IMG/VR virus record: IMGVR_UViG_3300011989_000257
Coordinates: 96,001-160,000 of that record
Length of the DNA stretch: 64,000 bases
Strand: one strand, 5' to 3'
Source: a virus
Taxonomy: Duplodnaviria; Caudoviricetes
Part shown: in pieces, positions 60,195-63,373 of the stretch
Numbering within the stretch: position 1 is the first letter of the stretch
How the letters are laid out: each line of letters opens with the position of its first letter
Position numbers and translations under genes: made by a program
The notes under the pieces: generated by a model
The model's database searches: none
The model's input: only the letters and a program-made list of their open reading frames with translations
Told to the model about the DNA's origin: nothing

Positions 60195-60452
60195 ATGACT
60201 TTACTGTATATCATCGGCATAATATATTTCACTACAACACTTATAATGTCAATAATTGTCACAATTGAAAAAAATTGGGATGAAGAAGGCTCAGTGACTT
60301 TTGTGTTCACACCTTTGCTAAATACAATAGTTATTTGCATAGGTATTTTCTATGTGATTCCAACAGACATCATAAAAGAACATAAGGAAAAAATAATGAA
60401 AAAACACAAACATGATACAAGATGGAAAATAATGAACACAGTAATCAAATAA
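60195..60452 (+). CDS. small membrane protein
   Basis: Two hydrophobic stretches; -7 element at 60159. Confidence 0.65.
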   Translation: MTLLYIIGIIYFTTTLIMSIIVTIEKNWDEEGSVTFVFTPLLNTIVICIGIFYVIPTDIIKEHKEKIMKKHKHDTRWKIMNTVIK

Positions 60453-60814
60453 AAACAATAGGAGAACTTAAAAAATACCTCGGCAAAGTGGTAGTATCAT
60501 ATTACTGCGATATAGATGGTGAAATAAGTTTTATGTGGATGTACAAACTTGTGAAAATAAAAAGCCAACTACAAGATGATTTGCCAATCAGACACATAAT
60601 TATGATGGGACTAAACCATATATGCCTAACAAATAATACACGCTATAGCATGTCAAACAAACCACCATTCCTAATGTACACAAGTGGAAGATTGTTTGAC
60701 ATGACGATACCAATGGTGTCTTCAGCACAAGAGTTCATGAGACCGCCAACAAAAGAAGAACTTAACATATACATTAAACTAACTAGAAAAAGAAGAATAT
60801 TAGGATATGATTAA
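60422..60814 (+). CDS. paralogue family member 1
   Basis: IKTIGELKKYLGK ... SAQEFMRPPTKEE. Confidence 0.7.
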   Translation: MENNEHSNQIKTIGELKKYLGKVVVSYYCDIDGEISFMWMYKLVKIKSQLQDDLPIRHIIMMGLNHICLTNNTRYSMSNKPPFLMYTSGRLFDMTIPMVSSAQEFMRPPTKEELNIYIKLTRKRRILGYD

Positions 60815-61259
60815 AAAAATTTATACAATATTAGTACTACTCTTTAACCTCATAGTAAGACGTAAACACTATAAACTACACTTCGTAGCCGAAAATGACC
60901 CACCTATCAAACTCTGGTATTATGATTTTAAACACTGGGGATTTGATAAGCATAATCTCTTGATGATATCAGGAGCTGATAAACTGTGTGAAATGTATGC
61001 AAAAGGGAAGGATGAGGTGACTGTGGAAATAATCGCTTCAAAGAAAAAACTAAACCTTAATCCACAACTCTATGATGAATTCGTAGCTCAAGACATCATC
61101 ATAGACGGAATGACACACCAAGGAAAATTCATTGATTCACAACTAGATAAATTCCTATGCGGAAGAACATATCAAAAAGGCAATACCCAGATGTGGATTT
61201 GCCCAGTTACACTGTTCGTCCTAGGCAGATACCCTAAATATATCTATATCAAAAAATAA
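60807..61259 (+). CDS. hypothetical protein
   Basis: LLMISGADKLC ... WICPVTLFV.GRYP.YIY. Confidence 0.7.
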   Translation: MIKKIYTILVLLFNLIVRRKHYKLHFVAENDPPIKLWYYDFKHWGFDKHNLLMISGADKLCEMYAKGKDEVTVEIIASKKKLNLNPQLYDEFVAQDIIIDGMTHQGKFIDSQLDKFLCGRTYQKGNTQMWICPVTLFVLGRYPKYIYIKK

Positions 61260-61262
61260 ATT

Positions 61263-61604
61263 ATGGAACAAAATAACTGCTTTGACTCAATTGAAGAACT
61301 AAATAAAAGAATAGGAAAATTCGTAATATTAGGGTGTGATGATGGCGGTCTCTATGCTAAACTGCTCACAAAAATAGAAATAACCAAAAACAATTCAAAA
61401 ATAGAAGGACATAAAATCTGGGGAAAATTCCTTGTCGGTATTTCTTCTAGTGGTAAAGTATCCGTTTATAATTTCTCACAAAACCAAGAAACATACGGAA
61501 TATACCAATATGCTAGAGACCCTACAGAAAAAGAAATTAAACTAATTAGAAAAAAATTAAGAGAAATCAAATTTAAAAATTTTTTAATAAAAAGTAAATT
61601 ATGA
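61263..61604 (+). CDS. paralogue family member 2
   Basis: FDSIEELNKRIGK ... YARDPTEKE. Confidence 0.7.
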   Translation: MEQNNCFDSIEELNKRIGKFVILGCDDGGLYAKLLTKIEITKNNSKIEGHKIWGKFLVGISSSGKVSVYNFSQNQETYGIYQYARDPTEKEIKLIRKKLREIKFKNFLIKSKL

Positions 61605-62005
61605 TTGACTATGAATTCGATAAACCAATAAACACAGTGGGAGAACTTAAAAAATATATAGGAAAACCATTGCTGTTCTATTATAACAATGGTAAAAATA
61701 AACCACAATACGCATGGATTAAACAACTTACTGAAATACCATATTATAATTATGATAATGATATGGGAATAAAAAAAATATCAACACAAGGACACAACTC
61801 AATGCAATATATACGAAATGGACAAATCAATATAGAATTCAAACATAACGATATATTCAAAACATCACACTCCAACGCACAAGACTATATAAGAACTCTC
61901 ACAAAAGAAGAGTTTAACCTATATAAAGATAAAACTAGAATGAGAAGATGGATGCCAGAACTAGCAGAAGAAATCAGAATAAAAAATAGTAAACTCCCAT
62001 TCTAA
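61601..62005 (+). CDS. paralogue family member 3
   Basis: INTVGELKKYIGK ... NAQDYIRTLTKEE. Confidence 0.7.
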   Translation: MIDYEFDKPINTVGELKKYIGKPLLFYYNNGKNKPQYAWIKQLTEIPYYNYDNDMGIKKISTQGHNSMQYIRNGQINIEFKHNDIFKTSHSNAQDYIRTLTKEEFNLYKDKTRMRRWMPELAEEIRIKNSKLPF

Positions 62006-62018
62006 AAAAAAATAAATT

Positions 62019-62366
62019 ATGAATATTACAACAATTGAAGAACTCAAAAAACATATCGGAGAATTCTTGGTCTTTGAATCAAAAGGATTTTATCACTATC
62101 AATGGATTCAAAAACTACAACGAGTGGGAAAAAAAGTAGATTATATACCACTAGGAGAAACAGAAATCTATCACCTACCATGCTATAGCTTGTTCTCAGC
62201 AGAAATATACCCTAATCTAAAACCATATAGCGGAATACACCTAGGTGAAAGTGTATATGAACTCTATCATACAAACGCACAATGTATAATCAGAACGCCA
62301 ACAAAAGAAGAAATGAAAAAATATATGATGTTGTGGAGAAAAATTATAATACTAGGTCGATATTGA
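62019..62366 (+). CDS. paralogue family member 4
   Basis: ITTIEELKKHIGE ... NAQCIIRTPTKEE. Confidence 0.7.
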   Translation: MNITTIEELKKHIGEFLVFESKGFYHYQWIQKLQRVGKKVDYIPLGETEIYHLPCYSLFSAEIYPNLKPYSGIHLGESVYELYHTNAQCIIRTPTKEEMKKYMMLWRKIIILGRY

Positions 62367-62569
62367 AAAATTCAAGAAATTTTTTTTCCAGAATTTTTTT
62401 TCAAATACATCAATGAGAAAAATTGGGGGCCACCCCCTTCTGAAATTTATTGAAAATTTTTCCAGAATTTTATTTAGCAAACTGTTCGTGTGTTAAAAGG
62501 TGTTAAAATCCCCCAAGGGGATGGAGGGGACATAACCCACCCACCTACCTGCCACCCATATCCCCATAA

Positions 62570-62585
62570 TGTTTCACGTGAAACG
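62570..62585. promoter_or_regulatory. parS-like site (intergenic)
   Basis: TGTTTCACGTGAAACG, 15/16 match to TGTTTCACGTGAAACA. Confidence 0.75.
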
Positions 62586-62659
62586 TGTGTAAATATTTTT
62601 TACCATATAAAATGTAAAAAAAGTGGAGAATTAATCCCCACTTCTTTGTAAAGATTTTT

Positions 62660-63373
62660 CTATGCGATTTCTTTCATTTTCGCAAGGGCCTCCCACTTAA
62701 TTTGTCTTACTCTCTCTTCTGTGAGGTTGAATTTTTTTGACAATGTGTACTCTGTCTCGATGCTATCAGTCAGCCCAAACAACCCACAAACAATGGCTTT
62801 CTCGACATCTTTCAAGCCACTAAGCAAGTAATTAATCTTGACACGCATATCCTCTTTCTCGCTGAATGTGTCACACTTCATATCAGATGCGAAAGTGTCG
62901 AGTAAAGTTTTTTCGCCGTCCTCGTCACTTGCGAGAGGTGCATCCATGCTTGCAGCATTGTAAGACTTTTTCGCACGAATTTCATGCACACCCATACGCA
63001 CTACCCTGCTATCGTTGTCGATACCGATATTAATATACTTTCTCACTTGCTCTAATGCCCAAGTGCTGAACATTGTTCCACGTGAAACATCAAATGTGTC
63101 CACCGCCTTGCAGAGACCTATTGAGCCATTTTGGAACATATCCTCAAATGGCATGATTGTGCCATAACTTGCAGCGATTGACCACACAATACGCAAGTTA
63201 GCGTTAATAACCTTATTACGAGCCACCTCAGAGCCATTGTGAGCCATTGTGATAAGTTCACGCACCTCGCTATCAGATAATGGCTTGCAGCGATTAATCT
63301 GTGAGAGCATTGCATCAATAACCTCGTTTCTTACGACGTGATTGTTACCTTTGAAATTCTTTGTCTGTGCCAT
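62660..63373 (-). CDS. RNA polymerase sigma-70-family factor (regions 1.2, 2, 4)
   Basis: ARNKVINANLRIV..IA, DMFQNGSIGL.KAVD.FD..RG..FSTWA, SMDAPL, LTEERVRQIK..AL.KM. Confidence 0.9.
   Translation of the reverse strand: MAQTKNFKGNNHVVRNEVIDAMLSQINRCKPLSDSEVRELITMAHNGSEVARNKVINANLRIVWSIAASYGTIMPFEDMFQNGSIGLCKAVDTFDVSRGTMFSTWALEQVRKYINIGIDNDSRVVRMGVHEIRAKKSYNAASMDAPLASDEDGEKTLLDTFASDMKCDTFSEKEDMRVKINYLLSGLKDVEKAIVCGLFGLTDSIETEYTLSKKFNLTEERVRQIKWEALAKMKEIA
63074..63089. promoter_or_regulatory. parS site embedded in the sigma gene
   Basis: TGTTCCACGTGAAACA, exact match to the TGTTNCACGTGAAACA consensus. Confidence 0.75.

Follow-up and report, generated by a model that had tools for sequence, protein, structure and literature searches.

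Host-type parS sites conserved at a sigma factor gene of a 412-kb phage: a putative route to partition by host ParB

Introduction

Why should a phage carry two copies of a bacterial centromere, one of them written into the coding sequence of a sigma factor gene? The question is raised by a stretch of 64,000 nucleotides (the window), which covers bases 96001-160000 in a virus record of 412,514 bp, rated as complete by CheckV. A sequence-only reading of the window had pointed to a pair of chromosome-type parS sites without a parA or parB gene, and had proposed that the phage may hijack the ParABS and SMC machinery of its host, or else titrate ParB away from the host chromosome.

The idea was taken there to be new, but a virulent phage that is devoid of ParB and carries host-type parS sites has already been published, namely phi29 (PMC2731898), which has five parS sites and whose genome is moved into the prespore with the participation of the host protein Spo0J. 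The principle is therefore known from phi29, and what is new in the present case is the host phylum and the genome size. To these the sequence comparisons would add an apparent mimic of the host site pair, a sigma-gene site whose maintenance is strongly backed by codon use, and a turnover of sites that can be followed over 67 sequences. As set out below, we consider it reasonably probable, on sequence grounds, that the phage 16-mers are functional host-type parS and that the host ParABS system partitions a non-integrating megaphage.

Results

Both 16-mers were found where they had been reported, with a distance of 504 bp between them. Site 1 (positions 62570-62585, TGTTTCACGTGAAACG) is intergenic and differs from TGTTNCACGTGAAACA by one mismatch at the outermost base; it is located about 75 nt past the stop codon of the sigma gene, just past a terminator hairpin. 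Site 2 (positions 63074-63089, TGTTCCACGTGAAACA) lies inside the sigma gene and matches TGTTNCACGTGAAACA without a mismatch. The two palindromes, to which no strand is assigned, thus agree with the 16-bp consensus of chromosome-type parS (tGTTNCACGTGAAACa) with one and zero mismatches, respectively. On the minus strand, site 2 reads as a T followed by the codons GTT, TCA, CGT, GGA and ACA, which specify V96, S97, R98, G99 and T100 in region 2.2 of the sigma factor, and this V-S-R-G-T stretch falls in the peptide FDVSRGTMFSTWA.

The pair is unique by every scan that we carried out. No further match with up to three mismatches exists in the 64-kb window, which upholds the original impression that nothing comparable occurs elsewhere in it, and a scan of the whole 412,514-bp record returns no match with up to one mismatch besides the two sites. 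Counted over both strands, the genome has 4 matches at this threshold, corresponding to the 2 palindromic sites, whereas 0.043 are expected from base composition. It had also been considered that this end of the contig might be a chimeric join to host DNA. Since the window is internal to the record, it is not a chimeric contig end, and the same locus recurs in many independent assemblies. Nor did GC skew point to an association of the sites with an origin or terminus of replication: the cumulative skew of the phage is monotonic and tracks the coding strand, with no switch near the sites, so that it places no origin in the genome and gives no origin signal at the sites, unlike at bacterial parS.

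The gene that houses site 2 (positions 62660-63373, minus strand) encodes a protein of 237 amino acids. It matches Pfam Sigma70_r2 with 37.2 bits, above the cut-off of 24, and Sigma70_r4 with 23.2 bits, slightly below the cut-off of 24.1. Both domains are present in its homologues, of which 311 were retrieved at E <= 1e-10, and the assignment of the V-S-R-G-T site to a factor of the sigma-70 family is accordingly sustained. Between its stop codon and site 1 there is a terminator-like hairpin followed by a T-run (positions 62617-62647, minus strand); in relatives the stem sequence varies while the hairpin itself is kept.

To the other side, site 1 adjoins a GC-rich block (positions 62505-62566, no strand assigned) that is hypervariable among relatives, with conserved blocks on both sides. 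Over its approximately 50-60 nt the relatives are almost wholly different (homologous blocks in L130-L143, L273 and L274), with a conserved CTATGT in the middle and a G-run and a T-run at the end. The block is probably an element separate from the downstream parS, because relatives devoid of this site have it too. A structured RNA beside site 1 was ruled out, as the block gave no Rfam match and no consensus fold. Two promoter candidates were likewise discarded: copies of the AAAAATnTTTACA motif beside site 1 are local only, which disfavors a genome-wide promoter role, and a sigma-70-type promoter over site 1 (TTTACA-16-CATTAT) matches at 9 of 12 positions, no better than shuffled sequences.

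To follow the sites in relatives we assembled 67 distinct sigma genes from viral contigs and metagenome contigs, together with three more distant homologues. The relatives were fetched partly by the peptide R[GE]T[MK]FSTW, one of two patterns, a choice that biases the amino-acid motif but not the codons or the downstream site. A downstream site was counted when it had at most one mismatch and lay within 300 nt after the stop codon, for which 64 loci had at least 120 nt of downstream sequence. The expectation that genuine sites would be conserved was borne out. The in-gene parS is present in 60 of the 67 genes and the downstream parS in 50 of the 64 loci; 47 of the 64 have both, 60 have at least one, and the 4 with none are the most distant relatives (at most 52% amino-acid identity). 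Two close relatives, as well as 14 viral contigs with sigma identities of 65-76%, all carry both sites in the same places. Three complete relatives (412.7, 412.4 and 295 kb) have no sites with up to one mismatch other than the sigma-linked pair, and a 409.5-kb relative has one such site and a second, at the homologous place, with mismatches at the two outermost positions. Few, clustered and conserved sites per replicon, at one pair per genome, are therefore the general pattern.

The exceptions to this pattern are informative in themselves. Lineages L273, L338 and L340 have the in-gene site only; L289-291 have the downstream site only, their in-gene motif being changed to T-A/T-R-N-I; L321 has its second site at 250 nt past the stop codon; and in L275 the downstream site has decayed to a remnant, TGTTTCAGTAAAACA, at the homologous place. 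Site 1 is retained although some lineages have lost its upstream flank and its downstream flank is hypervariable. A few relatives have core mismatches (CACATG, TACGTG and CGCGTG), which may weaken ParB binding. That single sites are lost while at least one is kept throughout the clade is what one would expect of a cis-element under selection.

The same pattern bears on whether host ParB might act here mainly as a regulator. ParB clamps at the two sites, which enclose the 3' two-thirds of the sigma gene, would then spread into the early region and damp its transcription, coupling phage development, dormant or lytic, to host ParB and to the state of the cell cycle. In every site-bearing lineage the site has remained linked to the sigma gene, within whose coding sequence one parS arose; this strict linkage could fit a local regulatory role equally well. 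P1 ParB is a silencer of flanking genes, and the ParB family includes a repressor, KorB. In S. pneumoniae, ParB that spreads from a parS is reported to affect a neighbouring operon (PMC4488948). Positional conservation, however, is expected from descent alone, and the one-site lineages and the displaced second site of L321 imply that bracketing is not required. Moreover, the transcriptional effects of chromosomal ParB are usually small. We therefore regard a mainly regulatory role as unlikely.

Inside the sigma gene, constraint can be read from the codons. We counted codons in the 58 sequences that have the DVSR[GE]T motif and took codon use in the same genes as background. The codons compatible with parS are almost fixed, at 57-58 of 58 against backgrounds of 0.20-0.42, which confirms the synonymous-site constraint that the sequence-only reading had put up for checking. 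Valine is GTT in 57 of 58 sequences (background 0.31), serine TCA in 57 of 58 (0.20), arginine CGT in 58 of 58 (0.35) and threonine ACA in 58 of 58 (0.42). At the remaining position, glycine is GGA in 41 of 41 (0.19) and glutamate GAA in 17 of 17 (0.51). Among nine lineage representatives, 12 of the 80 degenerate columns with an invariant amino acid use a single codon, and S97, R98 and T100, which are adjacent, account for three of them.

Residue 99, almost always glycine in the more distant sigma homologues, has changed between Gly (GGA) and Glu (GAA) several times on a quick maximum-likelihood tree; both codons yield parS variants that are present in host genomes. At this locus, then, synonymous positions are frozen and a conserved glycine toggles only between two codons that parS allows. 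The sigma gene seems to be an unusually clean candidate for a coding sequence constrained by an overlapping DNA-binding site.

These counts also bear on whether the in-gene match arose by chance or as a by-product of coding a conserved sigma motif. The arginine and glycine of region 2.2 are conserved sigma residues and do fix part of the match. They would not account for the frozen synonymous positions, for the excess of two sites over the expectation given above, or for the second, non-coding copy that is conserved nearby; in addition, the more distant sigma homologues have other residues at this place (xxKG) and no parS. Coincidence is thus extremely improbable. Judged by their sequence pattern, both sites are under selection as DNA.

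If the sites serve as centromeres, the proteins that act on them seem to come from elsewhere. The observation that the window contains no parA or parB gene extends to the whole genome by domain and profile searches. For ParB, neither ParB_N nor TIGR00180 gave a match, and a profile built from three host ParB proteins reached a best E of 0.7 against all 3,783 phage ORFs, which disposes of a hidden phage ParB of these kinds. For ParA, no gene of the AAA_31 or CbiA type was found in the genome, the sole match being a 14-bit P-loop one to CbiA in an 850-aa frame. The 412 kb thus contain no cassette in which parA and parB accompany parS as in P1, N15 and plasmids, and the lack of a phage-encoded ParB or ParA is shared with phi29. 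No integrase was found in the genome either.

The likely host was approached through promoters. The window has 16 Bacteroidota-type promoters (TTTG-N18-21-TAnnTTTG), compared with 3.2 +/- 1.8 in shuffled sequences. They span positions 5636-63868, and most are near-identical (TTTGGAATTTTAAC...TATATCTTTG). From this promoter type we infer a host among the Bacteroidota, putatively the Bacteroidaceae, and the phage itself would be a gut or rumen Bacteroidota phage, phage and host both being uncultured.

We then examined genomes of Bacteroides and Prevotella, which were reached by a 16S probe sequence. A parS with up to one mismatch is present in 5 of 5 named Bacteroidaceae genomes and, for the family around Xylanibacter ruminicola D31d, in 112 of 121 genomes. 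Most have a single site or two, and a close pair with a spacing of 0.58-0.82 kb (median about 0.7 kb) is frequent. In two genomes, X. ruminicola D31d (L266) and Prevotella sp. JUN01a (L267), the pair brackets apt between mnmG and uvrC. In two complete chromosomes the pair is more than 1 Mb from the parA-parB operon. Full-length ParB (ParB_N, HTH_ParB and ParB_C) was found in 3 of 3 host genomes searched, hosts being assigned here by promoter type. In X. ruminicola, parB sits in a parA-parB operon and its product matches solved ParB/Spo0J/Noc structures with E about 1e-49.

The comparison with host chromosomes has several consequences. Since the host has one or two sites, often as a close pair, the centromere count of the phage equals that of the likely host chromosome, in a similar layout. 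The pair spacing is 0.58-0.82 kb in the Bacteroidaceae and 0.43-0.53 kb in the phages. The gene context also differs, being apt between mnmG and uvrC in the hosts and the sigma gene in the phages, and the phage pair was therefore not copied from the host locus. For the same reason we rejected the possibility that the in-gene site was inherited with a captured host sigma gene, as the host pairs flank apt rather than a sigma gene.

The palindrome might instead be used by a binder other than ParB, either an unrecognised DNA-binding protein of the phage or, at the RNA level, a hairpin formed by the sigma transcript. The 14-nt core is able to fold in this way, and megaphages encode many proteins annotated without a function. 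On the other hand, a 16/16 match to the centromere of the host family, including the same permitted variant TGTTCCACGTGAAACA, would be very unlikely for an unrelated operator, and no ParB-like ORF was found in the phage. As to an RNA element, the downstream copy is probably outside the sigma mRNA because it lies beyond the terminator. A different binder accordingly appears quite improbable to us.

The low number of host sites is also what would make a ParB sink conceivable. Two sites on each replicating phage copy would strip ParB from the chromosome and disturb host segregation or ParA-linked replication control, as part of host takeover. In Bacteroidaceae genomes with just one or two parS, a few phage copies would already outnumber the chromosomal sites, and no partition genes were found in the phage itself. 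Such titration, however, should favor many sites, yet all complete relatives have 1-2 per 300-412 kb, and there is no evident benefit to the phage. We give the sink a low probability.

The recruitment of SMC by ParB, which was one branch of the sequence-only reading, found no support. Neither the phage nor any of four Bacteroidaceae genomes gave a match above the cut-off for canonical Smc (TIGR02168), and this branch is weakened as a consequence. A Hi-C study of two Bacteroidota species describes ParABS with parS and found no known condensin (PMC10197239).

Discussion

The results taken together leave the hijacking of host ParABS partly upheld: the sites are canonical and conserved and the putative hosts have ParA-ParB and the same parS, but the SMC branch has lost ground. 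We place the regulator, the sink and the other binder below partition by host ParB. This partition reading draws direct support from the identity and uniqueness of the sites, from DNA-level selection on them, from the absence of phage ParA, ParB and integrase, and from ParA-ParB and identical parS being present in the family inferred for the host. What we infer from these sequences is the identity of the host, the binding of ParB to the phage parS and the outcome of binding.

In the mechanism that we propose, phage DNA would enter a Bacteroidaceae cell, where the chromosomal ParB of the host, a CTP-dependent clamp, would load at the two 16-mers and form a partition complex on the phage DNA. 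Host ParA-ParB would then position or segregate the non-integrating 412-kb genome much as a second, small chromosome. The outcome could be inheritance in a carrier or pseudolysogenic state, or the placement of replicating phage genomes. Lin and Grossman reportedly found in 1998 that one chromosomal parS stabilises a plasmid in B. subtilis in a Spo0J-dependent manner.

Partition and regulation might also be combined. ParB clamps at the sigma-linked sites would in this case act as a developmental switch, silencing the phage sigma gene and the adjacent early region while partitioning the genome. We hold this rather unlikely. If true, the switch would allow a megaphage with neither repressor nor integrase to lie dormant like a plasmid, in a state that depends on ParB and is coupled to the cell cycle of the host.

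Partition by host ParB has its closest known parallel in the virulent Bacillus phages phi29 and Nf (PMC2731898). As in these phages, several sites of host consensus are found on a phage that lacks ParB, and the use of the host protein is proposed here. The differences are considerable. Phi29, a protein-primed podovirus of 19 kb, infects a spore former and ends up entrapped in the spore, whereas the present phage is a 412-kb megaphage of non-sporulating Bacteroidota; the outcome must therefore differ from that of phi29, and the pay-off is more likely to be partition or positioning. Phi29 has five parS and our phage two, one of which lies within codon-constrained coding sequence, and the megaphage case is described from sequence.

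Compared with the chromosomal parS of Bacteroidaceae, the phage sites have the same 16-mer, the same allowed variant and the same arrangement of one or two per replicon in a close pair. Plasmid prophages such as P1 and N15, and plasmids in general, also place a centromere site on an extrachromosomal replicon, a role in partition being proposed for the present sites. Those elements, however, encode their own ParA and ParB and have element-specific parS, while our phage has neither gene and carries the sequence of its host.

A conserved copy of the host centromere would provide a concrete and testable route by which huge non-integrating phages of the gut and rumen persist, namely hitch-hiking on host ParABS. 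Together with phi29, it suggests that the borrowing of host ParB may be widespread among phages of spore-forming and non-sporulating hosts alike.

Several minor features of the locus and of other contigs were noted in passing. The sequence AAAAAnnTTTAC occurs on the minus strand, in the sense of the sigma gene, at positions 62589-62600, 62648-62659 and 62902-62913, i.e. 3 copies in 313 bp, while genome-wide there are 11 copies against 9.2 expected. Across the nine lineages, no nucleotide-invariant run of the sigma gene is longer than the in-gene copy (GAAAAAACTTT, codons E154-K155-T156), which suggests that this gene is under a second constraint, acting on its DNA or RNA. Beyond the GC-rich block, positions 60422-62366 (plus strand) of the window contain five small tandem ORFs of 113-150 aa. 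Four of the five have a basic C-terminal region in common, as well as N-terminal motifs such as ELKKYIGK; the fifth (150 aa, positions 60807-61259) is without those common motifs and has the sole Pfam match of the five, to DUF6717. Finally, other IMG/VR contigs (L016, L030, L031, L070 and L082) have 3-5 perfect TGTTTCACGTGAAACA sites within about 1-3 kb, and these clusters could be further phage centromeres, or plasmid or host DNA.
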